A DNA stretch of 64,000 nt, from positions 1 through 64,000 of the forward strand of contig JBEKKX010000002.1 of assembly GCA_050010515.1 (NCBI GenBank), in the 5' to 3' direction. Both the position numbers and the translations under genes were made by a program. This stretch comes from Candidatus Bathyarchaeia archaeon. GTDB taxonomy: Archaea; Thermoproteota; Bathyarchaeia; Bathyarchaeales; Bathycorpusculaceae. Shown here piece after piece: positions 490-54,742 of this stretch (position 1 is the stretch's first letter; each line of letters opens with the position of its first letter). The notes below the pieces were generated by a model. That model was not told the origin of the DNA. It did no database searches and saw only the letters and a program-made list of their open reading frames with translations.

Positions 490-927
490 ATGTTCGGCAA
501 TAAAAGCAAAATGGAGCAATTCGAGTATTTGGTTAGCCATCCGAAATGGTTAGAGAACATCGGGTCGGCTCGCGTTTACGTTGGCATGAGCGACTTAATA
601 ATGGAAATCTTAGGTTGCGGCGACAGAAGAACAATAGCGTTTTGGATTGGCAAAAAGAAACAATTTAGAGTACGCAATAAACAAGATAGGTTAGTAGGGA
701 GCGAAAAAAACCAAACTTTACATTGGGTTCCGACTTATCATTATGAGTATGAATGGGAAGACGCTTTTCTTCAAAGACACGGCTACATTGAAACCAGAGA
801 AGACCCAGACCAAAAACAGAGTCTCGAATTGGGTTTTGACCTTCGCACTTTCAAGATTCTTAAAGGAGTCAAAGACGGCAAAACAGTAAGTGAGCCGATT
901 CCAACTCAAAACGCACCACATCCATAG
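490..927 (+). CDS. Hypothetical protein (element A)
   Basis: 145-aa ORF in operon, AGGA upstream. Confidence 0.6.
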   Translation: MFGNKSKMEQFEYLVSHPKWLENIGSARVYVGMSDLIMEILGCGDRRTIAFWIGKKKQFRVRNKQDRLVGSEKNQTLHWVPTYHYEYEWEDAFLQRHGYIETREDPDQKQSLELGFDLRTFKILKGVKDGKTVSEPIPTQNAPHP

Positions 928-939
928 GACGGTGAAAGC

Positions 940-1422
940 ATGAGTAACCAAGAAGCATATCAGCGAAAAGAAAAGGTAATCGAAGAAGCATGTAAACGGG
1001 AAGAAAAACCGTTTGTTTCACGGTTCGATATAGCACAGGAACGATACAAACTCAACAATAAAGCCGTAATGGAGAAAGCAACCGAGAAGGAACTTATAGT
1101 TCTTGAATTGGTTAAGCAGAAACGTAAGCAAAAAATTAAGGCGTTACTTGGGAAAGAGAAAAAACAGTATTTTGGCATTTCATTTAAGCAGTTCGAAAAG
1201 GCTTGTATTTGGAACGGTCACGGCTACGGGAAATGGCAAATACATGCAACATTCAAGAATGGGTTAGATACCAAAGTTTGGGAAGAAAAAATGCAATTGA
1301 ATTACCCCAAAATATGGGAAGCGTGGATTACGAGACTTAACCATAATCGCATGGAACAGCTTAAACAGAAAGAAGCTAACAGAAAACCCTCTGTTTTTAG
1401 TAAACTGCCAATGTTCAGGTAA
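940..1422 (+). CDS. Hypothetical basic protein (element A)
   Basis: 160-aa ORF, GGTGA SD upstream. Confidence 0.65.
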   Translation: MSNQEAYQRKEKVIEEACKREEKPFVSRFDIAQERYKLNNKAVMEKATEKELIVLELVKQKRKQKIKALLGKEKKQYFGISFKQFEKACIWNGHGYGKWQIHATFKNGLDTKVWEEKMQLNYPKIWEAWITRLNHNRMEQLKQKEANRKPSVFSKLPMFR

Positions 1423-1984
1423 CCCCGTTTTTCATCAATTTTAGTTAGGTTAGTTCTTTAGTGTTAACTCTATTTTTTGGAACCCAACTATTCAACAAAA
1501 CGAGTTAGGCTAACGTTATCAGGTCAGCCTAACCTTCTGTTACTATTATAGCCCTACGAGTGTAACACCTTTATAAGCAAACAACAAGCTTTATATACTT
1601 GCTCACGCAACTACTTAAACCTTACTAATATATAAACCATTCGTTTTTAAGCCAAAACCACCTAACATATGAATATATAAATAAAACCAAATCGTCCGTT
1701 TGCCAAAACAAGCTCAAATCAAGCCGCAAACGCCAAAAGAACCTGTACAACACATATACTCCGCCGTACTTGCCACCCACAGCCGAAAATCCGATGCCAG
1801 CGTCCACTTTTAGCGGTGACGAAAAATCGTGGTTGGTTTAGTTCGGGGTTGGGACTTGGTGATAAGAGTTAGTCGTTTAGGGTTGGTTATTGTTTAGAGC
1901 TTGGTTGTTTATATAGAGTGGGTTAACGGGGCTTGATTATAGGTTGTTTGGGCAAATCCTTTATCATTTTTTGTTATTTAGAAT

Positions 1985-2020
1985 AGAAAGATTTAAATAC
2001 TCGTGTTACAACTTGTAACA
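1985..2020 (+). promoter_or_regulatory. BRE-TATA (GAAAGATTTAAATA) followed by operator-like inverted repeat TGTTACA-ACT-TGTAACA
   Basis: TATA 1992-1999; inverted repeat 2004-2020; precedes RHH-like gene. Confidence 0.65.
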
Positions 2021-2070
2021 AGTGCTGACAACCGTTACTAATAAAGGTTTCGGTTTAGGTTAAACAGAAG

Positions 2071-2442
2071 ATGAAAAAAATGATAGAAAAAACAAGAGTA
2101 ATGCGCGTTCCAGAATCAGTCTATGAATTTTGGGGCTTTCTTGAGAAATACACAGGTAAATCTAAAGTTGAAAATCAAAAAGAACTTTGTGATGTTTTAA
2201 TGCAATTATGTGCAAGACACGACACTAACAAATTCAATTTAGTTTTTGAGTTGCAAGAATTTCCAACACCACAATTACTCATTAAAACAGAGGGAATTAG
2301 CACATTTACTATTGGGAAATTTGACCCAGAGGAAGAAAAGGAGAAGGAACAGGAACGGAAGCAACGATTTTCTGAGGTTGCTTTGAGCATCGCGGAATAT
2401 AACGGTAAGTCCATTCGAACAACAGAGGTAAAAAAGCCATGA
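2071..2442 (+). CDS. Putative ribbon-helix-helix regulator with C-terminal extension
   Basis: KTRVMRVPESVYEFW...TGKSKVE...ELCDVL beta-alpha-alpha pattern. Confidence 0.5.
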   Translation: MKKMIEKTRVMRVPESVYEFWGFLEKYTGKSKVENQKELCDVLMQLCARHDTNKFNLVFELQEFPTPQLLIKTEGISTFTIGKFDPEEEKEKEQERKQRFSEVALSIAEYNGKSIRTTEVKKP

Positions 2443-3047
2443 GAATTGAAGTAAAGACTTTAGATAACGCCTCATGGAATTGGACGGTTCCATTTCATGT
2501 AGAGGAATCATTAAACGGAAAACGGTTTAAGGGAGTTTTAGCCACAGAAGGCATAAGCAACAACAAAAACATTTACGAAACAGACCTTTTGAATTCGCTT
2601 GTCGGTCAAGTAGTGGGTTTAAAAATCTTTTTTGGCACATGCACAAAAGTCAACCCAAATACGGGTCAACTTACCGCAAACATGCATGATGAAAGCGGCG
2701 AACCCATAGGTCAAATATTGAGGGGCTGGATAGAAAAAGGAAAGCTCTGGATAGAGGGCATTTTAGAAGAAAGTTTTGCCAAACTACATAAAATTTCTAA
2801 GGGATGGGGTTTAAGCCTCAAGGGGAAAGGAGCAGTTTCATACGCGGTTGACGCGGCTGGAAGTGTTTTAAGCCGCATACGAAAGATGGTTTTGTCCTCA
2901 ATTCAATTGCTTAGTCCAAATACGCCTCGTGGCATGGACTCAGCCGAAGTTAAAGAGGTTCAAGAATCGCTTTGGGTTGAACAACCATTTTCAGATGAGG
3001 AATTAGCAAGCATCATAGTAACCTTGAATGAACAGGGGTTTTTATAA
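2439..3047 (+). CDS. Prohead/capsid maturation protease-like protein (HK97/T4 gp21 assemblin fold)
   Basis: FKGVLATEGISNNKNIY, His in MHD..EPIG, Ser in GLSLKG, QLLSPNTP motifs in the expected order. Confidence 0.7.
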   Translation: MRIEVKTLDNASWNWTVPFHVEESLNGKRFKGVLATEGISNNKNIYETDLLNSLVGQVVGLKIFFGTCTKVNPNTGQLTANMHDESGEPIGQILRGWIEKGKLWIEGILEESFAKLHKISKGWGLSLKGKGAVSYAVDAAGSVLSRIRKMVLSSIQLLSPNTPRGMDSAEVKEVQESLWVEQPFSDEELASIIVTLNEQGFL

Positions 3048-3048
3048 A

Positions 3049-3756
3049 ATGTCAGAAAAAACAATTGAAATAAACGTAAAGAAAGACTCGGAAAACGAGC
3101 AGTTAAAACAGCAACTCGCCGAGAAAACTGATGAGTCAGAGGATTTAAAAAATAAGCTCGGCATAATTGCGGAAAAAAAGCTGGAAGAGAAACGTAAAGG
3201 TGTTACTGAAAAAATAAACACTCTTATTGCTGACCCAGATAAACGCGCTGAAATGCTTGAGAACTTGAAGGGTCGAACCCCAGAAGGCATCAAAGATATG
3301 GAGTACACAATGAACCTTCTTGAAGAACAGCTATCGAAAGCTAAAAACCAAAAATTCGAAGTTCCCGCTGGGAGTGCACCTATGAACTCTCAACAATTGG
3401 GTTCCAGTATAGAAACTGATGATATTTACAGGAAAAAATTCGGGTCATATGACGACATGATACGCGCACTTAGAAATGAAAGTAAATCTGAGGACAAACA
3501 GAAAGCTCAACATGCAAATCTCGTTTTAAATGCGTTGTTAAACAAGTATGCCGTTGCTCAAAAACAAATACATGAGGAAAATCGTTACTGTGAAGACGAT
3601 GCTATTCCCAAAACCGACAAAGTTCCAACTGTGGACTTTAGCAAATCAGAAGAGCCTTTTAGCGAACTTGAACGTTTTGGAATCCGCAAATCACCATTAA
3701 ATTACGCTCGTAATCAACGGCAAATAATCGGTCAAAAAGCAAAGGATGTGGCATAA
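3049..3756 (+). CDS. Coiled-coil protein, possibly scaffold-like
   Basis: Heptad E/K-rich N-terminal half; directly follows protease (TAA-A-ATG). Confidence 0.55.
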   Translation: MSEKTIEINVKKDSENEQLKQQLAEKTDESEDLKNKLGIIAEKKLEEKRKGVTEKINTLIADPDKRAEMLENLKGRTPEGIKDMEYTMNLLEEQLSKAKNQKFEVPAGSAPMNSQQLGSSIETDDIYRKKFGSYDDMIRALRNESKSEDKQKAQHANLVLNALLNKYAVAQKQIHEENRYCEDDAIPKTDKVPTVDFSKSEEPFSELERFGIRKSPLNYARNQRQIIGQKAKDVA

Positions 3757-3757
3757 A

Positions 3758-4207
3758 ATGACTTCAAAAAACGAGTATATTAAGGAAATGAATGCTGAAA
3801 AAAAGAAGATTGTTCCAACTTTATACGTTAGCGATTCGGAAGGCAAATACGGTGTCATAAATAGAAAATTTTTCGAATGCATCATGGCTTATGAGGTTTG
3901 GAGTGCAGAGCCGTTTGAAGACGACTACTTGACAACTTTTCTATCAAAACCTAAACTTCAGGAAAATGATGAGGCAATTGGCATTTGGACAACGATAGTT
4001 TACAGAGTCCACTTTCACGATGAGAAATCACGGGGGTTTGCCCAATTTGAAGCTGATAACCGAAATTCAGATGGATTGACGGTTAAGCGTACAAGCGATA
4101 AAGAAATCACTAAAGAAGAGTTTGAAACGAAACTTAAAACTCACAAGTATAAAGTTCTCCAAGAAGACGGCGGTTATTTAGTCGCTCTCAAAATGTACGT
4201 TAAATAG
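3758..4207 (+). CDS. Hypothetical protein (element A)
   Basis: ORF coupled by TAA-A-ATG. Confidence 0.6.
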   Translation: MTSKNEYIKEMNAEKKKIVPTLYVSDSEGKYGVINRKFFECIMAYEVWSAEPFEDDYLTTFLSKPKLQENDEAIGIWTTIVYRVHFHDEKSRGFAQFEADNRNSDGLTVKRTSDKEITKEEFETKLKTHKYKVLQEDGGYLVALKMYVK

Positions 4208-4217
4208 GTAGGAGAAA

Positions 4218-4325
4218 ATGCCCGATGGACTCAGAGACGAAGACTTTGAAAAAGAAATCGTCCAACAAATTCGAACTAATCAAAATAAATCACGTAAAAA
4301 GGAGATGAAAAAACAACATGAGTGA
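4218..4325 (+). CDS. 35-aa small ORF MPDGLRDEDFEKEIVQQ...
   Basis: AGGAG SD; stop overlaps the start of the next gene. Confidence 0.4.
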   Translation: MPDGLRDEDFEKEIVQQIRTNQNKSRKKEMKKQHE

Positions 4326-4668
4326 TGCACAAACAGAAAATCAAAGTAAAGTTTCACAAGTAAAGGCTAATCCGACAATGAGCACTCTCGATGCACTTGT
4401 CCATGAACGCGACTTAGAAACCCAGAGACAGAAGCGCAAAGACTCAACGGTTGAAGTAAAGGCAGATGCTTATACTCCAAGCAGAAACGATATGGTACCT
4501 TTAGGTGCCGATAAATCAACTGTCAATGGCGACAAATCCGAGCAAGACCTAAGCGAAGAATATCCAGTTGAAGAAATGAATGCAATAAAGGAACCGCAAA
4601 AAATCGGCAAACCAAGTCCGACTCCCGTAATAGAAAATGAGGACGAAATACCCTCAGAAGATGACTAA
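4318..4668 (+). CDS. Acidic low-complexity hypothetical protein
   Basis: 116-aa ORF, AGGAG upstream. Confidence 0.6.
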   Translation: MSDAQTENQSKVSQVKANPTMSTLDALVHERDLETQRQKRKDSTVEVKADAYTPSRNDMVPLGADKSTVNGDKSEQDLSEEYPVEEMNAIKEPQKIGKPSPTPVIENEDEIPSEDD

Positions 4669-4673
4669 TTCAA

Positions 4674-4843
4674 GTGATTAGGGACATCGTGCGGTGTTTT
4701 GCCATAACATCCACAATTCTGTGCGGTGTCTCTATCACATCGGTACGGGGGAAAGTCACTATTCCCCTGTGCCTTAAACTTACAAAAAACATAGCGTCTC
4801 TACAACCATTCGGGGATGGGGGGTTACCTTTCCCCCCCGTCCT
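4674..4843 (+). ncRNA. Candidate structured RNA: three consecutive GU-containing hairpins
   Basis: Stems 4674-4692/4721-4738, 4742-4753/4762-4773 and 4814-4823/4833-4842. Confidence 0.45.
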
Positions 4844-4869
4844 TAAATTAATTAACTAAGGTGAAAAAT

Positions 4870-4974
4870 ATGAATAAAAAGAAAATCGTAAAAGAATTCA
4901 AGGGCAAGGAAATTGAAACCGAAGAATTGTGCATTCTTAGGTGGATGAGCGTCAAGCCTAAAGAGGATGATTAA
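4870..4974 (+). CDS. 34-aa small ORF MNKKKIVKEFKGKEI...
   Basis: AGGTGA SD; ends 2 nt before next ATG. Confidence 0.4.
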   Translation: MNKKKIVKEFKGKEIETEELCILRWMSVKPKEDD

Positions 4975-4976
4975 AA

Positions 4977-5504
4977 ATGACAGAAGAAAATGATAAAGAA
5001 CAAGAAAATAATGAAGAAAATCAATCTATCCACACTCAAGAACCTGAAGAGGAATCCCCAGAGGAAAACGTAGAGAATGAGGAAAACTCAGATGTTGACA
5101 TAGACAATTCCGAAGAGACAAGTGAGGAAGAGCAATATCAAATAGAGCTTGAGAAGTGGTTCGCGGAACTTGAGAAACTGCACGGCGTACCCTTCGCTAA
5201 TGAGATGCGTAAGAAAATCCTTTTGGACAAGCAAATCGCTAATGAACTTGATTATATGGCTTATTCTAAACAGGCTCATGAAGATGCACAGGAAAGGCTA
5301 CAAGTAATCAGAGACCAAAACGATGCGCTTTTTGAGAGAACCCAGAAGTTAGTTGAACAAGCCACAAACCTAAACGCTAAGTCGTATGCACGATTTAACA
5401 AATTCTTAGATGATAGTGAAGTCCGCGACAAAGCATTGGAAAGTCAACTTAGCCAAATAATGGAACTTAAACGGAAAAAGTTGGAAAAGGACTTAGAAAA
5501 GTAA
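4977..5504 (+). CDS. Acidic N-terminus plus coiled-coil hypothetical protein
   Basis: E/N-rich first ~55 aa, helical C-terminus. Confidence 0.65.
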   Translation: MTEENDKEQENNEENQSIHTQEPEEESPEENVENEENSDVDIDNSEETSEEEQYQIELEKWFAELEKLHGVPFANEMRKKILLDKQIANELDYMAYSKQAHEDAQERLQVIRDQNDALFERTQKLVEQATNLNAKSYARFNKFLDDSEVRDKALESQLSQIMELKRKKLEKDLEK

Positions 5505-6107
5505 ATGCAACAACTCCAAACTTTAGAAATACTATGCCCTTTTTGTAATGATAGTACAGTTGTTCGGCATGGCTTATCCAACGATGGAAGCAAACAGCGA
5601 TTTATCTGTCGTTCATGCGGAAAGAACTTTTTTGTTTCCTTAACAACTTCACAAATTATCCAGCCTATTAAGCAACCAAATAGGCACCTGACAAGAAAAC
5701 CAACAGGGCAATCGGCAAGATTTAAAATGCTAATACCTATTCCCGATGACGTTAAATGCCCAAGATGTAATGGTGTAAGCCTTCAAAGGCATGGTAAATC
5801 CCCTAATGGAAAGCAAAGGTACTTTTGTAAAACTTGCCGAATAAAATTTGTTTTCGGCTTTAAATCTAATCAACAAAAAATGATGAGTAACAGAATAATT
5901 CACATGTCACATTTGGCAATTGATAATTGTATAGAAATACCTTGCTTTTTATGCCCAGATAACGACAAGATTTGTTCAACTCTTGAATGCGGCAAATTAT
6001 CAGCGTGGTTGAATAGTCCACCTATTCATGGGTATATCCCTAAAGTTGAGGAATATGAGTTAGGCGATACAGGAGAATTTGAAGATACATGGAGACGCAA
6101 TAGGTAA
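5505..6107 (+). CDS. Two IS1/InsA-type Zn ribbons fused to a TFEbeta/RPC34-like 4-Cys Fe-S motif
   Basis: Two CPxC..RHG....GxQRxxCxxC ribbons; C-terminal PCFLCPDNDKIC....CGKLSAW. Confidence 0.65.
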   Translation: MQQLQTLEILCPFCNDSTVVRHGLSNDGSKQRFICRSCGKNFFVSLTTSQIIQPIKQPNRHLTRKPTGQSARFKMLIPIPDDVKCPRCNGVSLQRHGKSPNGKQRYFCKTCRIKFVFGFKSNQQKMMSNRIIHMSHLAIDNCIEIPCFLCPDNDKICSTLECGKLSAWLNSPPIHGYIPKVEEYELGDTGEFEDTWRRNR

Positions 6108-6745
6108 TGTTTGACACAGAAACCCACGAAGCTAAACTACGAGAGCTTAACGAGCGTTATATAGCGGGCAAACTGTCACGGGAAGGCGTTCAAAATGAAA
6201 TTAGCTGTTTGCTCGGCGAAACGAATTTGGCTTTCCGACTTCAAAACCGTTTGCTTCAAGCGGTAAACGGGGAACTTTCCGCAAAGGGAAAAGAGCGTAT
6301 AAACTTGAAGCAATACCTTGCAAAATGTGGGGAAATAGAGGATTCAATTATTCAAAGCGAGTTTCCATTCGCATTTTTCCAAGAAGCAACCTTAGAAGAA
6401 ATCGAGGCGTTAGACCCTACCCTTTTCGACTCAAAAACCTTAATGCTTATCGTAATTTCGGCTCTTCGCATGTACATCGATAACGAACAAGAAAACGACC
6501 CTAAAGCTGAAGCTCTACATAAAATCTATCTTGAGCTAAAAATTTCGCTATGTGCTTTAATCCCAGAATTTCCGAAAGAGGATGGTTTTGTTGATTATCT
6601 GGATAACCGTGAATCTAAATTATTAGCCGAACAACTCAAACAAACAGGGGAAAAATGTCCGTATTGCTCAGGTACCCACATCCAGAAATATGGGCAAAAA
6701 AAGTTCAAATGTGTATCTTGCGGGCACTATTGGAGAACCAAGTAA
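6107..6745 (+). CDS. Helical protein with C-terminal Zn ribbon
   Basis: CPYCSGTHIQKYGQKKFKCVSCGHYWR. Confidence 0.65.
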   Translation: MFDTETHEAKLRELNERYIAGKLSREGVQNEISCLLGETNLAFRLQNRLLQAVNGELSAKGKERINLKQYLAKCGEIEDSIIQSEFPFAFFQEATLEEIEALDPTLFDSKTLMLIVISALRMYIDNEQENDPKAEALHKIYLELKISLCALIPEFPKEDGFVDYLDNRESKLLAEQLKQTGEKCPYCSGTHIQKYGQKKFKCVSCGHYWRTK

Positions 6746-6962: not shown

Positions 6963-7073
6963 TTAACGGTTTGCTACGCTGTCGAGATAGCTGTTAGCCA
7001 TGTCAAGTTTAGAATTCGTTTTCCGCAACTCGGCTAAGATTTCTCTTAAGACCTCAAGTTCTTCAGTTGTCAT
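6963..7073 (-). CDS. 36-aa helical ORF coupled to integrase A
   Basis: ATGA overlap with integrase stop; MTTEELEVLREILAELRKTNSKLD...; followed by T tract. Confidence 0.5.
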   Translation of the reverse strand: MTTEELEVLREILAELRKTNSKLDMANSYLDSVANR

Positions 7074-8221
7074 GGCTCTTCACTCTCTTTATGTTCTTCT
7101 TTGGGTTCTTGTTTTTTGCCATTTTGGGTTTCCATTATTTTAGCGAATTCATAGACGCTTTTCAGTTGTTCTTGAATTTGCGGTGGCACCTTGCTTAACA
7201 TACCGTTCTGTTCCATGAATTCAATTAATGCCTTTTGCGCCTTAACATGTGATACGACCAAATCGGTTAAGATGTTATATTTCGCGTTTCCGTTAACCAT
7301 TTGGCTTAATGATAGGTGTGTTGGGTAGGCTTTTTGATATTTCTCATACGCACTTTTCTTTAAAGTTTGCAAATAAGTCGAATCAGTCACGGGTATTTCT
7401 TTACCAACTATTATCTTGACTTCCCAAGCGTTTAACCCCGCGTCACTTAAAGCATTCATAAGGTATTTGCGCAATAGGTGAAAGTGGACACGACCAATTA
7501 AGACAATATTTGCCTCAGTCGCCAAATTCTTAAGGATGTTGTTTAACTGTAGCTCGGTTAAGTCAAATAATTTCGTTTGATTTGGAGATTCTTTATTTAA
7601 CTTCATTATGTAGTTGTCTAAGCTGAAGATTGCCATAGGGTTAAGTATTCCGTAAACGGTAGCTCCCGTTTTTTTCCGTTGCCAATCAAAAGCGATAAAC
7701 TCAGAGTTTTGTGATTTGGTTCTTTTAACCAAGTTTTCTACAAAGTCTCTTTCCAAGTTGCCGAAAGACGAAACGTCCCACCCTAAACTTGTTGCCGTGC
7801 TAAGAATTGCCTTGTTGCGTGTGTCGGCTACCGCATACATGGCGCGAAGGTCAGCTATTGAGAAGATGTGTTCGCCTTTAGCCGCTTCCGCTTTAACAGT
7901 CTTTTTCTTTAAACCTCTAATCGGTTCTTTTTGGCTACTATAAAATGCTCTAACCGCATTAATGGGGAACCGCACGGAATTAGGCTTTAACGATTCGCCT
8001 TTAGGAGTCTTATAATCATTAACGAGGTAGTTTTGAAATGCTAAAAGTTGGCTCTTCGCCTTGATTTGGTCGAAGTTGTCTAACAGTTGCTTAGGAGTCG
8101 TTTTAGCCCATGAGCAGAAAAACTTGAAACTTGTTTCGTTTGCACTTTTCGTTTTAGGGTTTTGGTACTCGTTAAGCCATGCGCTCATAGGTAGCCACTC
8201 GTTTTGTTCTTGTTCATTCAT
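7070..8221 (-). CDS. Tyrosine recombinase/integrase (element A)
   Basis: RNKAIL...SLGWD, RKKT, HFHLLRKY (HxxR), IVGK...STY catalytic Tyr; N-terminal core-binding region. Confidence 0.85.
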   Translation of the reverse strand: MNEQEQNEWLPMSAWLNEYQNPKTKSANETSFKFFCSWAKTTPKQLLDNFDQIKAKSQLLAFQNYLVNDYKTPKGESLKPNSVRFPINAVRAFYSSQKEPIRGLKKKTVKAEAAKGEHIFSIADLRAMYAVADTRNKAILSTATSLGWDVSSFGNLERDFVENLVKRTKSQNSEFIAFDWQRKKTGATVYGILNPMAIFSLDNYIMKLNKESPNQTKLFDLTELQLNNILKNLATEANIVLIGRVHFHLLRKYLMNALSDAGLNAWEVKIIVGKEIPVTDSTYLQTLKKSAYEKYQKAYPTHLSLSQMVNGNAKYNILTDLVVSHVKAQKALIEFMEQNGMLSKVPPQIQEQLKSVYEFAKIMETQNGKKQEPKEEHKESEEP

Positions 8222-10435: not shown

Positions 10436-11710
10436 TTAAGTAGGGGTAGTGGTCATTGGCTGCATGCTTTTTCGAATCCAAGAAACAAATCCCATAATTG
10501 CCTGAGCGAATATCTGAGTTTCAAGCTCTTCTGTAGTGTTCATTCCAGCGAGAAGAAGATGCCCTCTTCCCCTCTTTAATAAACAAATTGGGTAAATTTC
10601 ACCAGAGACCTCATCTTTAGCTCTTATAATGGGGACTAAGTCAGTACTATTTGGTAGCGCTCTAAATTCATTGATTGTACAGTTCTCAGGTATTAATTTC
10701 CCAAATTTCTCAACATCTTCATCACTCTGAAAGACAGGCCTTTTATTTTTCGAGACTGGCGTAGGCATTACGTTAAACTCCCTATGAAGGAGGGTGCCTG
10801 TAAATTCAAGATATTCCTTGTAATTCTGAATTGTGACGTTAATTCCATCAAACTTAATCTCGTCGGGTACCAAGAGCCTTTTTTCACATATTGCTATTTT
10901 ATTGTTCTCTTTAAGGGTAACATCCCATGCGTAAAAAAAGGGAAATCCACCTGTATTTACGTAGACACCGCCATTTTCGATATAACTGCGGATATTATTG
11001 AAAGCCAAGTTTTGCTTAACGTTGATTTCCGGAAACATTTCGCCAAAAGGGTTAATGATAATACCATATCTCTCAGAAATATCTTCAGAATTTATATCCT
11101 CAATTTCAAGTTCTATGCCTAAAGTCCCACTTAGGCTCTCAAGTCTTTTGTGCCAAGTGGTCCGATCATTATTAGCAAACGGGAATTCAGCACACTTAAC
11201 CTCTCCTGCTTCCGAGAAATAACCAGTAAGAATGCCTATCCTTACTTTAGGTAACCACCTATTTCTTATCTCAACGGTGCCAAGTAAATTGCATAACGTT
11301 TTTGCATCGTTAATTACAGTACTCGAATATTCTTTTGAAAATATTTTATCAGGCATAACCTTTGGAAATTGATTATGCTGTATTCCATATCTTGCGATAA
11401 TCCTAAGGTCATCAGTATAGCCAAGCAGAATTGGTGTCATTTTGGTTATAGTGCTTGATTTGCCGAAACCTTTTTCTTCAATCTTCTTAGCCAATGCGCT
11501 AATAGTAGTAGCTTTTAGAAAATGCTCATGGTTAACGTCGGTTACATCCAGAAGCTCACAAAGAGCTTTCAAAGAAAATTCAATAGCTTCAAAGGCAGCA
11601 ATTACAGATTCAACATTATTACTATGAAACAATCTCTTCGCTTGGCTTAGGTTATGGTAAGCTCTTCGGGTATACCATGCGGCTAAATCGCGATCTGTCA
11701 TGCTAATCAC
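10436..11710 (-). CDS. HEPN domain fused to class I glutamine amidotransferase-like domain
   Basis: N-terminal RAYHNLSQAKRL..AFEAIEFSLKAL..HEH..ARYG; C-terminal IINPFGE..YIENGGVYVNTGGFPF. Confidence 0.65.
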   Translation of the reverse strand: MISMTDRDLAAWYTRRAYHNLSQAKRLFHSNNVESVIAAFEAIEFSLKALCELLDVTDVNHEHFLKATTISALAKKIEEKGFGKSSTITKMTPILLGYTDDLRIIARYGIQHNQFPKVMPDKIFSKEYSSTVINDAKTLCNLLGTVEIRNRWLPKVRIGILTGYFSEAGEVKCAEFPFANNDRTTWHKRLESLSGTLGIELEIEDINSEDISERYGIIINPFGEMFPEINVKQNLAFNNIRSYIENGGVYVNTGGFPFFYAWDVTLKENNKIAICEKRLLVPDEIKFDGINVTIQNYKEYLEFTGTLLHREFNVMPTPVSKNKRPVFQSDEDVEKFGKLIPENCTINEFRALPNSTDLVPIIRAKDEVSGEIYPICLLKRGRGHLLLAGMNTTEELETQIFAQAIMGFVSWIRKSMQPMTTTPT

Positions 11711-52330: not shown

Positions 52331-52972
52331 TTAGGTTTCCTGTTCACAGTTGCCCTTCGATTTTAAGCCTGTGGCTAAAAGGTACATTTCAGAGCTTTTA
52401 GCTCGGCTTGCCTGAGGCTTCACTATCTTAACTGTTTCAAAAAGATTCTTTGCTGTTTGGATAAAATCGTTGAGCAAGTTACCTTCAAAAACCTTAACAA
52501 AAAAGTTCCCTTTGGGCTTAAGTAGGCATTGAGCTATTTCTAATGCTTTAGTTGCTAAGTCAATTTGTCTTGCGTGGTCAACTTCCCAAACGCCAGTGAT
52601 GTTTGGTGCAGCATCAGAAATTACTGCGTCCGCTTCGCGAGGCAGAAACGAGCGTATTTCCTCGACTATGCCTGGCTCAGTGAAGTCTGCAATTATTGTT
52701 CGAATGTATTCCTGCGTGAAGGGTTCGATTGGTTTTAAATCAACGCCCAGAACAAAACCGTTTTTTCCAGTCATTTTTCTTGCTGCTTGAATCCATCCTC
52801 CTGGCGCAGCGCCTAAATCCACTACTACGTCGTCTCTTTGTATGAAACCATATTTCGCGTTGGCTTGAACTAGCTTGTATGTGGCTCTGGAGCGGTAGTT
52901 TTCTTCTTTGGCTTTTTTGTAGTAGTATTCCCGTTTTCTATCTTGGATCCAAGCTTTCGGCAAGTGAATCAT
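52331..52972 (-). CDS. rlmE: 23S rRNA methyltransferase RlmE/FtsJ
   Basis: YRSRATYKL, DLGAAPGGW, SDAAP, ASRAKSSEMY. Confidence 0.93.
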   Translation of the reverse strand: MIHLPKAWIQDRKREYYYKKAKEENYRSRATYKLVQANAKYGFIQRDDVVVDLGAAPGGWIQAARKMTGKNGFVLGVDLKPIEPFTQEYIRTIIADFTEPGIVEEIRSFLPREADAVISDAAPNITGVWEVDHARQIDLATKALEIAQCLLKPKGNFFVKVFEGNLLNDFIQTAKNLFETVKIVKPQASRAKSSEMYLLATGLKSKGNCEQET

Positions 52973-53366
52973 CCTCTTGTGTGCTTGGCGCGCTTGGACC
53001 CGCAGTAGTTGTGGCTTCTTTTCCTAAGCCGAGTATCCAATCTGTAAGTTTTGGGCAGCTTTTAGGTGAAAGTGCAGTTGTTGGGTCACACCTTTCATTG
53101 TCTGGGCAGAGTAAGCATGGGCAGTCAACGATGGTTTCTATCGATGCTGGAAGCCTTTTTGGGTAAAGCCTATATGTCCATCTGCCTTCTTGCAGTTCTT
53201 TTTCTCTGCGGATTAGGCCTTTTTCTTCTAGTTTAATGGAGACACGTGAGCCTTCTCGGCTGCTTGCGCCTAGTTCACGCCATAAATCGGATTGAAGCAC
53301 ACCTTGATAGCCTGTGTTTACTACATAATGGAGTGCTTTCTGTTCAAGGTCATTACGTTTAGGCAT
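52938..53366 (-). CDS. TFEbeta / RPC34-like transcription factor (wHTH plus 4-Cys Fe-S domain)
   Basis: GVLQSDLWREL..KLEEKGLIRRE..TYRL; PCLLCP...C...P..CPKLTDW. Confidence 0.8.
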   Translation of the reverse strand: MPKRNDLEQKALHYVVNTGYQGVLQSDLWRELGASSREGSRVSIKLEEKGLIRREKELQEGRWTYRLYPKRLPASIETIVDCPCLLCPDNERCDPTTALSPKSCPKLTDWILGLGKEATTTAGPSAPSTQEDDSLAESLDPR

Positions 53367-53506: not shown

Positions 53507-54742
53507 ATGAGTGACTTTACGGAAGCAAATGAAGAGTGGATTCTAAAATTCGAATCTGGAAAAAATTGGATTCCTAAACTGCCAAGCCGACATACAAAAC
53601 GCATTTTCATAAGAGCCTTACAGAAATACTGCCAAGCTGTCAAACAAAACCCAGATGAGCTAATCAACCTTAAAATCGAAGGCTTGAAAGCTGTAGCAAC
53701 AGAAAAGGAATTCGGAGCGGAACGACAGCTTGAAACCTACCTTAGAAACTCAGGTATGACTGACAGCGTTAAAGCTGAATCCAAGAATGCCATTATCAGC
53801 TTTTATAAACATAATTGGAGAAACCTTAACCCCAACGTTGCAAGCGATATAGAACCCCCAGAAGCTAAGAAGAGAACCCCGACAATAGAGGATATACAAG
53901 CCCTCGATGCTAACATGACTACTTCACGGGATAAAGCGTTAGTTTGGTTTTTCCCCTCAACTGCCGTAAGAATTGAAACTTTAACTAAACTGACTAAAAG
54001 AGACCTAAAGCCGACAGGTGACAGCGAAGTTCCCTATTACATGGAAATTGAAAGCGCGAGATTAAAAGGCTCTGGAATTGGAAAATATAAAGGCATAAAG
54101 CAAATAACTTTCGTTCATAAGTTGGCATGGCAGAGATTAGAAGATTATTTTGCAGAAGCTAAACGCAAAGGCTACAACTTAACCGATAGTTCGCCGTTGT
54201 TTATTGCATACAAAGGGCACTTCAGCAAAGAAGAAAAGAAATTAGCAGTTAAACCTAAAAGAATCCGAGTCATGACTCAGGGAGCAATCAATCAAGTGTA
54301 TGATAATGGGTCACTCTCCGCATGGAAAGATTTGGAACAGAAACGCTTTTCGCCTCATGATTTCAGAGATTTCCTTGAATCATCCCTTGAAAGTGCGGGA
54401 ATAGACAAAAATCTCAGAGACCCTATGATGGCGCACAAGGTCAGGGGAGTAGATAAGCACTATTCAAGCCATGAAATTTTGGAAATGAAAGATAAATACA
54501 AAACCGCATTGCCTTATCTGTTACCTCAATCTGTGGAGAAACTCAAAGCTGAAGCTGACAAAGTGAAAGAGGAAAATGAGAAAAGAATTAAATTTCTTGA
54601 ACAGCGACTTCTTGATAACGGTTTAAGTATCAATAAGATGCTCACAGACTTTAACCAGTTGAAAGCAACTTTTGAGGAACTGCAAAAACTGAAAGAGGAA
54701 GAGGAACGCAACAAACCAGAAAAGAAAAAGGTATGGGATTGA
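53507..54742 (+). CDS. Tyrosine recombinase/integrase (element B)
   Basis: RDKALV..STAVRIE (R), RLKG (K), PHDFR (HxxR), MAH...KHY (H, Y). Confidence 0.92.
   Translation: MSDFTEANEEWILKFESGKNWIPKLPSRHTKRIFIRALQKYCQAVKQNPDELINLKIEGLKAVATEKEFGAERQLETYLRNSGMTDSVKAESKNAIISFYKHNWRNLNPNVASDIEPPEAKKRTPTIEDIQALDANMTTSRDKALVWFFPSTAVRIETLTKLTKRDLKPTGDSEVPYYMEIESARLKGSGIGKYKGIKQITFVHKLAWQRLEDYFAEAKRKGYNLTDSSPLFIAYKGHFSKEEKKLAVKPKRIRVMTQGAINQVYDNGSLSAWKDLEQKRFSPHDFRDFLESSLESAGIDKNLRDPMMAHKVRGVDKHYSSHEILEMKDKYKTALPYLLPQSVEKLKAEADKVKEENEKRIKFLEQRLLDNGLSINKMLTDFNQLKATFEELQKLKEEEERNKPEKKKVWD

Follow-up and report, generated by a model that had tools for sequence, protein, structure and literature searches.

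A mobile-element protein joining two zinc ribbons to a TFEβ-like four-cysteine domain: a candidate mimic of an archaeal basal transcription factor subunit

Introduction

Can a mobile element of an archaeon carry its own version of a basal transcription factor subunit? The question is raised by ORF 5505..6107, located in a 64,000-nucleotide stretch of archaeal DNA that we refer to as the window, the product of which combines Zn ribbons with a Cys domain resembling that of TFEβ. In Sulfolobus, the winged helix (WH) of TFEβ is dispensable, whereas its FeS domain is vital for TFEα binding, and TFEα requires its own WH and C-terminal tail for pairing with TFEβ, as described in the available text of Blombach et al. 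2015 (PMC4495717). TFEβ has been proposed to be a global regulator of archaeal transcription, with its level and its oxygen-sensitive cluster varying with conditions (PMC7289017, available text). An earlier note on the window, made from its sequence, had suggested that the protein might mimic a basal transcription factor. We describe here a computational analysis of the locus.

Results

Architecture of the element protein

The features of the gene and its product are as follows.

5505..6107, + strand: gene for the chimeric protein, 200 amino acids, arranged as Zn ribbon, Zn ribbon and TFEβ-like Cys domain (ORF list, Pfam, NCBIfam, family alignments A1, A2 and A6)
5529..5642, + strand: Zn ribbon 1, approximately residues 9–46, CPFC...CRSC (Pfam Zn_ribbon_InsA in two stretches; Elf1-like over residues 11–46)
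5751..5852, + strand: Zn ribbon 2, residues 83–116, CPRC...CKTC (best stretch of PF03811, residues 83–112; NCBIfam NF050000, residues 85–116)
5889..5924, + strand: conserved segment NRIIHMSHLAID, residues 129–140, ahead of the Cys cluster (alignments A2 and A4)
5937..6011, + strand: four-Cys cluster and the helix that follows it, residues 145–169, IPCFLC...KLSAWL (hhalign, PDB match, Cys spacing table)
6015..6062, + strand: conserved C-terminal tail motif SPPIHGYIPKVEEYEL, residues 171–186 (kept in two-ribbon family members)

The ORF starts with ATG one base past the stop codon of ORF 4977..5504, and its own stop codon overlaps the start of ORF 6107..6745. Residues 1–120 consist of the two ribbons, in place of a winged helix. 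The earlier note had read this region as two InsA-like ribbons replacing the host WH, and this reading was borne out by Pfam PF03811 (E 1.6e-16) and NCBIfam IS1_IS1595_Zn (NF050000, E 9.2e-19), each matching over two stretches. No WH, MarR or B-block family was present among the best 25 of 27 Pfam families. The ribbons are of the transposase type, which is compatible with other roles too. In the predicted full-length structure, pLDDT was approximately 91–94 over residues 11–40 of ribbon 1, approximately 90 for ribbon 2, and 45–67 for the C-terminal domain; modelled alone, this domain had a mean pLDDT of 59.1, corresponding to low confidence.

The Cys residues of the cluster are C147, C150, C157 and C162, with KLSAWL forming the subsequent helix. 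The motif had previously been placed at 5931–6011, of which the end is exact and the start lies two codons early, the true start being 5937. The NRIIHMSHLAID segment is the counterpart of the TFEβ linker and “SIDSI” stretch. N9, R10, H13, H16 and D20 were invariant among the six closest family members (alignments A2 and A4).

The host TFEβ orthologue

The window also contains a host gene with a related motif.

52938..53366, − strand: host TFEβ orthologue, 142 amino acids, WH and CX2CX5CX10C domain (family profile, orthologue survey)

The motif CPCLLCPDNERC...CPKLTDWI occupies residues 82–111 of this protein. The family profile matched human RPC6 (E 1.8e-7) colinearly across the WH and the Cys domain, and 191 of the phylum's 201 genomes carry the gene. 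The ligand spacing equals that of C92/C95/C101/C112 of Sulfolobus TFEβ (PMC4495717, available text). By these sequence comparisons, ORF 52938..53366 is the TFEβ orthologue, and the host TFEβ represents the kind of protein from which the captured domain came.

A small and rare element family

The element family comprised 11 proteins, each bearing one ribbon or two, after one 565-residue repeat protein that lacked the Cys motif (P0003) had been dropped as spurious; a 1958-residue protein from the search of representatives (P0007) was left out of the family. A full-length match of the element type was found in one of 401 genomes of the class, and a word-index search with the whole protein returned only the protein itself (1 of 15 candidates). 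No relative was detected in a viral contig collection scanned both with the protein and with the A4 profile. In a genome contig collection, the single-protein scan gave none and the A4 scan one locus (L059). A candidate from a metagenome scan (L064) proved to be a GC-rich false match.

A stand-alone mini-protein of approximately 60 residues with a TFEβ-like Cys domain was also observed in 33 of 61 genomes of the genus, in variable contexts; the copy in the host genome, encoded at G000:C4:22555–22740, has 62 residues.

Homology of the C-terminal domain to TFEβ

The element and host proteins have in common PCxLCPDN, four Cys residues and CxKLxxW, as the earlier note had stated, and BLASTP aligned element residues 138–169 with host residues 75–111 (13 of 37 identical; E 4e-6, calculated for this pair only). 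The Cys region also matched TFEβ at the profile level, as had been anticipated: hhalign of A2, the C-terminal alignment of the element family (nine sequences), against A3, an alignment of 18 host TFEβ orthologues, gave a probability of 96.3% and E 1.7e-9 over 32 columns. In a column-shuffle control, three of 200 shuffles beat the real score (134–138 versus 54.9) and the other 197 scored at most 20.8; the three were end-of-query alignments of 13–22 columns, one of which was inspected in full and showed 14% identity, and they were taken for artefacts.

A search of 5.77e9 proteins (31–154 aa) with the A2 profile yielded 95 candidates, including eight matches at E<=1e-3. Four were of the element type and four were true TFEβ proteins with a WH motif (P0013, 1.6e-6; P0015, 1.8e-5; P0016, 2.6e-4; P0017, 3.9e-4; database-wide E values). 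Among 24,223 six-frame ORFs of at least 40 residues in the host genome, the C-terminal family profile retrieved the protein itself (2e-32), the mini-protein (2e-9) and the host TFEβ-like gene (1.3e-6), with the next match, an unrelated one, at 0.085. The A4 profile matched eight of the 401 genomes of the class at E<=1e-7, one through the element protein of the host genome (G000) and the other seven all through TFEβ orthologues. With the C-terminal 80 residues, 20 places were obtained in 61 related genomes: the protein itself, 13 TFEβ orthologues, two element-type or mini-proteins and four weak matches (L016, L020, L021 and L022) that were rejected as noise by profile. The tail motif was present alone in L020.

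The likeness extends beyond the Cys residues. TFEβ-invariant positions I79, P83, P101, L107 and W110 are matched by equivalent positions in the consensus of the element family, and a family member with canonical spacing (P0006) aligned with TFEβ P0015 free of gaps. The best PDB match of the A2 profile was the Fe-S domain of human RPC6 (residues 285–315), at an E value of 0.19 that is not significant alone. In the reverse direction, a search of the host genome with the Cys-domain part of the TFEβ alignment (A3, residues 70–115) retrieved TFEβ itself (1e-22) and the mini-protein (0.0014), with the element protein falling outside the top 15 (E>4). The match to an RPC34 model that the earlier note had envisaged did not materialize for Pfam, in that PF05158 (Rpc34) matched none of eight element or mini-protein sequences at E<=10; its scores for true TFEβ proteins (P0013, 1.7e-4; P0015, 1.2e-3; host TFEβ, 0.05) were all below the 28.4-bit cut-off. 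Profile comparison nevertheless indicates that the similarity between the element domain and TFEβ exceeds chance and that residues 145–169 share ancestry with the Fe-S domain of TFEβ/RPC6.

Cysteine ligands and metal

At least four Cys residues were kept in all 11 members of the element family, in line with the conservation expected in the earlier note. Their spacing was 3-4-4 in six members, 2-6-4 in three, including the window protein, and 2-5-10 in one (P0006), with the remaining member having six Cys residues; nine of the 11 thus have 3-4-4 or 2-6-4 in place of the 2-5-10 seen in 22 of 22 TFEβ sequences. The third Cys lies four residues ahead of the fourth (C-x-P-x-x-C), an arrangement resembling a Zn knuckle. 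Given this non-canonical spacing, the metal could be Zn rather than a 4Fe-4S cluster, and we regard Zn as a live alternative. The assignment of a TFEβ/RPC34-type Cys domain was therefore upheld by profile homology, whereas canonical CX2CX5CX10C ligand spacing was not found in the window protein and an Fe-S cluster is thus not established. Natural variants of the cluster motif (2-5-10, 2-6-4, 3-4-4 and 2-11-4) could reveal what the RPC34/TFEβ domain requires for binding of its metal and its partner.

Mobile-element context

The following genes surround ORF 5505..6107.

490..4668, + strand: run of co-oriented ORFs, left part of the element (ORF list)
4977..5504, + strand: upstream abutting gene, 175 amino acids, acidic N-terminus, coiled-coil-like (ORF list; no family)
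6107..6745, + strand: overlapping downstream gene, 212 amino acids, C-terminal IS1/IS256-type Zn ribbon (NCBIfam IS256_N_4Cys, E 0.002, residues 183–207)
7070..8221, − strand: tyrosine-recombinase-like integrase (Pfam Phage_integrase, E 0.0023; NCBIfam XerA, E 2e-5; both below cut-off)

The gene belongs to a conserved block of three, the last of which also ends in a Zn ribbon. Family members with available genomic context lie in syntenic, integrase-bearing elements, and syntenic neighbours were found at L059, L062 and L063. Homologues of ORF 6107..6745 are at the equivalent position in L059 (9086–9757) and L062 (232–867), and counterparts of ORF 4977..5504, which had no Pfam or PHROG match, were recognized by eye, unaligned, at a like position in L059 (7009–7602) and L063 (1162–1731). 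The integrases of the window and L108 are related (E 8e-6), and the L108 enzyme also matches the integrase of L059 (E 1.4e-24). The location in a mobile element that the earlier note had assumed is thus confirmed by the integrase, its relatives in L059 and L108 and the syntenic neighbours.

No Pfam, PHROG or PADLOC match was obtained for the ORFs of 490..4668, and PADLOC returned nothing for 10 island proteins. Since the contig begins at window base 1, the element's left end was not located. A direct-repeat search for att sites in L060 (1–12240) gave only short, chance-like families, and contigs from four DNA runs aligned on L060 showed neither a joint bypassing the whole element nor a circle junction; these contigs split the left part of the element into strain variants. 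The intergenic region directly upstream of the three-gene block (4669–4976) is structured and conserved. The 64-kb window yielded no match in Rfam and no tRNA with ARAGORN. The element is integrated, with its own integrase, and is possibly derived from a virus. Its host is a peat archaeon of the Thermoproteota, probably a member of the Bathyarchaeia.

Predicted complex with TFEα

Binding of the protein to TFEα had been proposed in the earlier note. We modelled host TFEα, encoded at G000:C3:7765–8274 (170 amino acids, 21-row alignment), together with element residues 121–200 and a 4Fe-4S cluster, and obtained ipSAE values of 0.72, 0.71 and 0.72, compared with 0.00 for the best of three controls. 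Of 80 solved complexes, 58 reached the ipSAE mark, as did two of 110 mismatched pairs; our model differs from this calibration set in its custom alignments and ligand. Contacts agreed by at least 93% among runs, and pLDDT of the partner was at least 66. In the model, residues 89–109 and the tail (148–168) of TFEα face I145, C147, F148, L165, L169 and P172–H175 of the element protein; residues 135–143 also lie within the interface, and residues 172–175 touch the Zn-ribbon region of TFEα. The predicted docking of the domain on TFEα parallels what is reported for the TFEβ FeS domain in the available text of PMC4495717. The score may reflect memory of solved RPC3/RPC6-type complexes, and the model speaks in favour of binding in silico, not as proof of it.

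Discussion

ORF 5505–6107 gives a mobile element its own paralogue or mimic of a basal-factor subunit, a new variant whose function we infer. The reading that we prefer, to which we assign slightly less than an even chance, is that of a chimera whose TFEβ-derived domain docks on host TFEα and biases open-complex formation. At the N-terminus, a pair of C4 Zn ribbons of the IS1/InsA/IS1595 type stands in for the TFEβ winged helix, and the C-terminal approximately 60 residues copy, in diverged form, the metal-binding four-Cys domain of TFEβ/RPC34. This copy may fill the TFEβ site by docking on the helix that follows the WH of TFEα and on the TFEα C-terminal tail. In this way the element would form an alternative TFEα/β* factor or block normal TFE, and open-complex formation might be biased either toward element promoters, with the ribbons as new contacts to DNA or RNA polymerase, or away from host genes. 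Redirection of RNA polymerase and sequestration of TFE, the two outcomes suggested in the earlier note, are both pure conjecture.

The principal alternative, which we consider appreciable but rather unlikely, is an element-specific DNA-binding regulator, in which the ribbons bind element DNA and the TFEβ-derived Cys domain serves as a small, metal-stabilized module for self-association or redox sensing that makes no contact with TFEα any more. Such a role would suit the IS1/InsA-type ribbons, which accompany DNA-binding transposases, as well as the divergence of the Cys spacing from TFEβ, the conserved three-gene block closed by another gene with a ribbon of this type, at its C-terminal end, and the structured intergenic region immediately upstream. 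Metal binding alone, however, hardly explains why non-Cys positions invariant in TFEβ are mirrored in the element consensus, and it is those residues, together with the conserved tail, that meet TFEα in the complex model, for which the controls scored 0.00.

A transposon relic or accessory, either an InsA-like regulator of transposition or a recombination directionality factor with a chance resemblance to TFEβ, appears improbable. The protein matched NCBIfam transpos_IS1 with 54.9 bits over profile positions 1–51 of 199, a family member (P0011) is labelled “transposase-like protein” by one source, and host transposase ORFs (C22 and C9) bear the same ribbon. The IS1 match, however, does not reach the cut-off of 100 and is confined to the ribbon, and the protein has neither an HTH nor a DDE part; the gene sits in an operon conserved across tyrosine-integrase elements and apparently not in an insertion sequence, and its product resembles TFEβ to a statistically significant degree. 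A factor of the Rpb9/TFS/TFS4 type that binds RNA polymerase, with two linked Zn ribbons tethered by the TFEβ-like domain, is very improbable: Foldseek with the full-length model returned mostly Rpb9/A12.2 chains and archaeal TFS4 (7oqy_Y; best E 4.6e-3, TM 0.15–0.35) and the best PDB sequence match of the full-length profile was the 1qyp Zn ribbon (E 0.014), but no Foldseek match reached E<=0.001, rmsd was 11–13 Å, TFIIS_C and RNA_POL_M were absent among the Pfam matches listed, and any protein with two ribbons would look much the same.

Set beside known systems, the element protein shares with TFEβ/RPC34/RPC6/hRPC39 the C-terminal signature P-C...C...C...C-x-K-L-x-x-W. It differs from TFEβ in lacking the winged helix, in carrying an extra conserved tail motif, in escaping PF05158 in every case tested, and in being rare and borne by a mobile element, whereas TFEβ is a near-universal single-copy core gene. 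With InsA and IS1/IS1595 it has in common the C4 ribbon, which is present twice and scores strongly against the HMMs; unlike these, it has no HTH or catalytic part of a transposase, apparently lies outside any insertion sequence and joins its ribbons to a transcription-factor domain.

In bacteria, phage sigma factors and sigma appropriators exemplify the supply by a mobile element of a replacement or modifier of an initiation-factor subunit, with folds unrelated to that of the element protein. By extension of our preferred reading, integrative elements in archaea resembling Bathyarchaeia might encode an alternative TFEβ subunit, which retains solely the metal domain that docks on TFEα, bears tandem Zn ribbons instead of the promoter-facing winged helix, and reprograms or throttles open-complex formation, and the stand-alone proteins of approximately 60 residues might act as minimal TFEα decoys, or “anti-TFEβ”; this broader proposal, an archaeal counterpart of sigma replacement or appropriation, we put forward as a doubtful one.

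Known viral or cellular shutdown of archaeal transcription targets RNA polymerase itself, with ATV ORF145/RIP and TFS4 binding the enzyme directly (at the clamp; at the NTP channel) (PMC5569661 and PMC9501531, available text). The element protein resembles these small proteins, linked to mobile elements or infection, in probably targeting the basal transcription machinery, and resembles TFS4 also in its two Zn ribbons; in the same texts, by contrast, neither RIP nor TFS4 is described as copying a TFE subunit. As the earlier note had supposed, literature searches yielded no described element protein with this architecture, the available text of the two reviews included. The TFEβ-like domain may allow the element to tap directly into the transcription-start machinery of its host. 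If this is correct, copying of a basal-factor dimerization domain by a mobile element would be a new route of takeover, and the protein would offer studies of promoter opening a natural separation-of-function variant of TFEβ, with the Cys domain and no WH.

Two minor observations concern the C-terminal domain. A FastTree analysis of an alignment of approximately 45 columns separated TFEβ, element and mini-protein groups, and was given no weight, the alignment being short and the tree midpoint-rooted and taken without support values. Searches of the ESM Atlas gave no usable match by features and, by structure, a lead only, with TM values of 0.37–0.39 to three TFEβ-looking clusters that bear PF04182, span 111–126 residues and belong to Thermoproteota/Bathyarchaeota.

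Element gene and its protein

The gene of interest and the Cys motif in its product are located as follows:

5505-6107, + strand: element protein gene, an ORF of 200 aa
5937-6011, + strand: Cys motif of the element protein, residues 145-169 in the translation of ORF 5505..6107

Together with its neighbours, the ORF makes up a compact three-gene block: ORF 4977..5504 ends one base before it begins, and the start of ORF 6107..6745 overlaps with its stop codon. Tandem InsA-like Zn ribbons, described in the earlier note, were confirmed: the InsA NH2-terminal Zn ribbon (Pfam PF03811, E 1.6e-16) and the IS1/IS1595 Zn-binding domain (NCBIfam, E 9.2e-19) were each found twice. The Cys motif that the note placed at 5931-6011 is present, but its start had been set two codons early. 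In a full-length structure model, both ribbons were predicted confidently (pLDDT about 90) and the COOH-terminal part poorly (pLDDT 45-67); the latter would be compatible with folding upon binding of metal and a partner, but proves nothing in this respect.

Host TFEβ

52938-53366, - strand: host TFEβ gene, an ORF of 142 aa with the Cys motif at residues 82-111

Judged from its sequence, this ORF is TFEβ, as had been proposed. It matched the winged-helix (WH) family B-block_TFIIIC (Pfam, E 2.9e-5) and, weakly, the last 37 profile positions only of Pfam Rpc34 (E 0.05), and a profile of 18 orthologues matched human RPC6 (E 1.8e-7) with colinear WH and Cys domains. Six-frame searches detected the gene in 191 of 201 genomes sampled across the phylum (165 of 174 of good quality). 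The invariant cysteines of the orthologues, C84, C87, C93, and C104 (CX2CX5CX10C), have the same spacing as C92/C95/C101/C112 of Sulfolobus TFEβ, which is described as carrying a [4Fe-4S] cluster (Blombach et al. 2015, PMC4495717). According to the sections of that report consulted, binding to TFEα depends on the FeS domain of TFEβ, which is vital, whereas its WH is dispensable; both the WH and the COOH-terminal tail of TFEα are needed. This agrees with the role in dimerization that the earlier note gives for the cluster domain in Sulfolobus.

An FtsJ-type methyltransferase gene (PF01728) overlaps the TFEβ gene, and the pair is kept across the order. Directly upstream of TFEβ lies a second tyrosine-recombinase-like gene (53507-54742, + strand), unrelated to the integrase-like gene at 7070-8221 and followed by low-GC ORFs without family as far as about 57.3 kb. 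Given that the corresponding position in genome G004 is occupied by a copy with 71% identity, and that G030 retains a remnant of 21 aa there, the site looks like a recurrent integration spot.

Homology of the element Cys domain with TFEβ

Residues 138-169 of the element protein aligned by BLASTP with residues 75-111 of host TFEβ (13 of 37 identical, E 4e-6 as a single comparison), and profile-profile comparison (hhalign) of the element family (9 sequences) with TFEβ (18 sequences) gave a probability of 96.3% (E 1.7e-9, 32 columns). Searched against 5.77 billion proteins of 31-154 aa, the element profile retrieved four true TFEβ proteins, all with a visible WH motif, at database-wide E values of 1.6e-6 to 3.9e-4. 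Among 24,223 six-frame ORFs of the host genome it found host TFEβ at E 1.3e-6, the next unrelated ORF being at 0.085. Matches at E <= 1e-7 occurred in 8 of 401 genomes of the class and comprised the element protein in the host genome and seven TFEβ orthologues. A single-sequence search of 61 related genomes listed 20 places: the query itself, 13 TFEβ orthologues, two element-type or mini-proteins, and four noise matches. The best PDB match of the profile, the Fe-S domain of human RPC6 (residues 285-315, E 0.19), serves as a pointer only. Each of the invariant TFEβ positions I79, P83, the four cysteines, P101, L107, and W110 has its equivalent in the element consensus, and one family member, P0006, aligned without gaps with the TFEβ protein P0015 over the entire domain.

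The RPC34/TFEβ profile match sought in the earlier note was thus obtained with hhalign, but not with Pfam Rpc34, which matched none of eight element or mini-protein sequences, nor in the reverse search of the host genome with the TFEβ Cys-domain profile, which failed to recover the element protein among its best 15 matches. In a column-shuffle control of hhalign, 3 of 200 shuffles exceeded the real score (134-138 versus 54.9) and the other 197 scored 20.8 or less; the three aligned no more than 13-22 columns at the end of the query (14% identity in the one printed fully) and are regarded as a scoring artefact. Taken at the sequence level, homology of the COOH-terminal domain with the TFEβ Cys domain is well supported and very probable.

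Family members, Cys pattern and metal

An exhaustive HMMER scan with the COOH-terminal 80 aa (E <= 1e-3) matched nine proteins: the element protein, six true relatives (P0002, P0004, P0005, P0006, P0008, and P0009), P0003, and P0007. P0003 was dropped as a repeat protein, and P0007 (1958 aa) is left out of the family count. Profile searches added P0010, P0011, P0012, and P0014, and P0002 proved to be the COOH-terminal piece of a full-length 215-aa protein at the related element locus L059. The family thus has 11 distinct members including the L059 protein, seven with two ribbons and four with one. All 11 contain at least four cysteines in the cluster, in keeping with the Cys conservation expected in the earlier note. 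The spacing is 3-4-4 in six members, 2-6-4 in three including the window protein, and the canonical 2-5-10 in P0006; the one other member has six cysteines. P146, C147, C157, and C162 never vary across the nine aligned sequences, and the second cysteine moves by one position.

In most element members and mini-proteins, the third Cys stands four residues ahead of the fourth (C-[DN]-P-x-x-C), whereas TFEβ has an aliphatic residue or Thr at that place and its third ligand ten residues before the fourth. CxxC and CxxxxC knuckles are also typical of Zn sites, and the sequence is compatible with either a cubane cluster or Zn.

A stand-alone version of the domain is encoded elsewhere in the host genome:

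G000:C4:22555-22740 (L095 2556-2741), outside the window: mini-protein of 62 aa, little beyond the Cys domain

Its pattern is C-x2-C-x11-C-x4-C (2-11-4) followed by KLSEWL. In searches of the host genome ORFs, it was recovered with the element profile (E 2e-9) and also with that of the TFEβ domain (E 0.0014); hhalign gave probabilities of 97.2% against the element family and 93.3% against TFEβ. Within the genus, 33 of 61 genomes encode such a mini-protein, some of them twice, in mostly non-syntenic contexts (at 9 of 11 other loci, resemblance to the host locus is confined to the gene and some 90 adjoining bases). They could be minimal TFEα-binding decoys.

A 73-aa frame in genome G032 (L020 867-1085, - strand) has a tail motif, ISPPIHRYIPKITDEF, that closely resembles SPPIHGYIPKVEEYEL in the window protein, and no Cys cluster; the tail motif may be a separable docking peptide.

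Predicted contact with TFEα

Contig C3 of the host genome: TFEα, 170 aa (PF02002, E 1.6e-18)

We modeled TFEα (21-row alignment) with element residues 121-200 (9 rows) and a 4Fe-4S cluster. The complex reached ipSAE values of 0.72, 0.71, and 0.72, and all three controls 0.00. In the calibration, which applies only roughly because own alignments and a ligand were used here, 58 of 80 solved complexes attained the mark, as did 2 of 110 mismatched pairs. Contacts agreed to at least 93% between runs, with partner pLDDT of at least 66. The pass may stem from solved RPC3/RPC6-type complexes that the predictor had learned; the model supports binding of the element Cys domain to TFEα, as the earlier note had supposed, without showing it. 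The predicted interface involves TFEα residues 89-109 and COOH-terminal tail residues 148-168, facing I145, C147, F148, L165, and L169 of the element protein, which fits the Sulfolobus biochemistry. The conserved tail P172-H175 contacts residues 124-126 in the Zn-ribbon region of TFEα in the model, possibly the reason for its conservation.

The most likely reading, at a little under even probability, is that the element protein takes the place of TFEβ on TFEα. An element regulator whose Cys domain serves only self-association or redox sensing is a less probable but serious alternative, and a transposon-type accessory protein is improbable. An RNA polymerase binder like Rpb9/TFS4 is very unlikely, its sole hint being weak Foldseek rows (best E 4.6e-3) with TM scores of 0.35 or less.

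If the element protein docks at the TFEβ site, its Zn ribbons in place of the WH would yield an altered TFE factor, and the outcome could be retargeting to element promoters or dampened host initiation. In Sulfolobus, the TFEα WH and TFEβ FeS domain are reported to be enough to stimulate DNA melting, with the TFEβ WH contributing to stability of the pre-initiation complex (PMC4495717); the ribbon-for-WH swap would therefore give an altered rather than a dead factor. The element protein has a Cys domain homologous to that of TFEβ and may use the same interface, but it lacks the WH, canonical spacing, Pfam match, and core-gene status and is therefore not a strict TFEβ family member.

The earlier note knew of no element protein with this architecture, and our search of titles and abstracts found no paper on a virus- or mobile-element-encoded TFEβ-like protein. 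The parts consulted of two reviews (PMC5569661, PMC9501531) and a Bathyarchaeia virus paper (PMC10848311) name only RIP, TFS4, and unspecified Zn-finger/wH proteins. We regard the element protein as a candidate variant or mimic of an initiation-factor subunit, supplied by a mobile element.

Genomic context and distribution

490-6745, + strand: co-oriented ORF run without family match, containing the element protein gene
7070-8221, - strand: tyrosine-recombinase-like gene (HMM matches below cut-offs)

Housekeeping genes (HflX-like GTPase, ThrRS, AOR, ProRS, and others) begin at about 12.5 kb. The mobile-element setting claimed previously holds: in addition to the recombinase-like gene, the gene block recurs at L059, in a MAG titled Candidatus Bathyarchaeia archaeon, and in the metagenome pieces L062 and L063. 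The L059 element encodes an integrase, a HerA/DUF87-like ATPase (7.5e-5), a GT2 glycosyltransferase, and a PHROG tail-completion/Neck1-like protein (phrog_5, 2.8e-9). A one-ribbon member (L108, genome G020) belongs to an island of some 8 kb that is flanked by host genes and also encodes a related integrase. At E <= 1e-7, only the host genome among 401 of the class (40 of the genus including the host) gave an element-type match, and only the G020 protein was added when the single sequence was searched in the 61 relatives (37 of them from the genus, the host included). These sparse matches and integrase-bearing loci indicate that the gene is rare and patchily distributed, with mobile elements as its carriers. 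No capsid or terminase that would mark the element as a provirus was recognized, and its left end was not found.

An extra gene, absent from the window's element, directly follows the Zn-ribbon/Cys-domain gene in L059 (8249-8743) and L063 (2222-2764). That of L059 is the phrog_5-like gene, a match that hints at descent of the related elements from a tailed virus. A 424-aa ORF (10436-11710, - strand), situated in the low-GC DNA that separates the integrase from the first housekeeping genes, has an NH2-terminal HEPN domain (E 1e-6) and no PADLOC match.

The stretch was present in 20 DNA runs among those listed (peat, wetland, soil), 7 of which may be the source of the window DNA itself; no RNA run was among those listed. 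Contigs from two runs, X6 and X9, diverge from the reference at the same two points (L060 313-2096, window about 177-1960) and carry other sequence between them, so that this part of the element is a replaceable module differing between strains.

Upstream of the three-gene block, the intergenic stretch 4669-4870 (+ strand) forms three strong predicted hairpins (-73.5 kcal/mol, z -6.45; none of 200 shuffled sequences did as well). The stretch has no Rfam family and is conserved in L063, and a short ORF (MNKKKIVK...) follows it in both elements.
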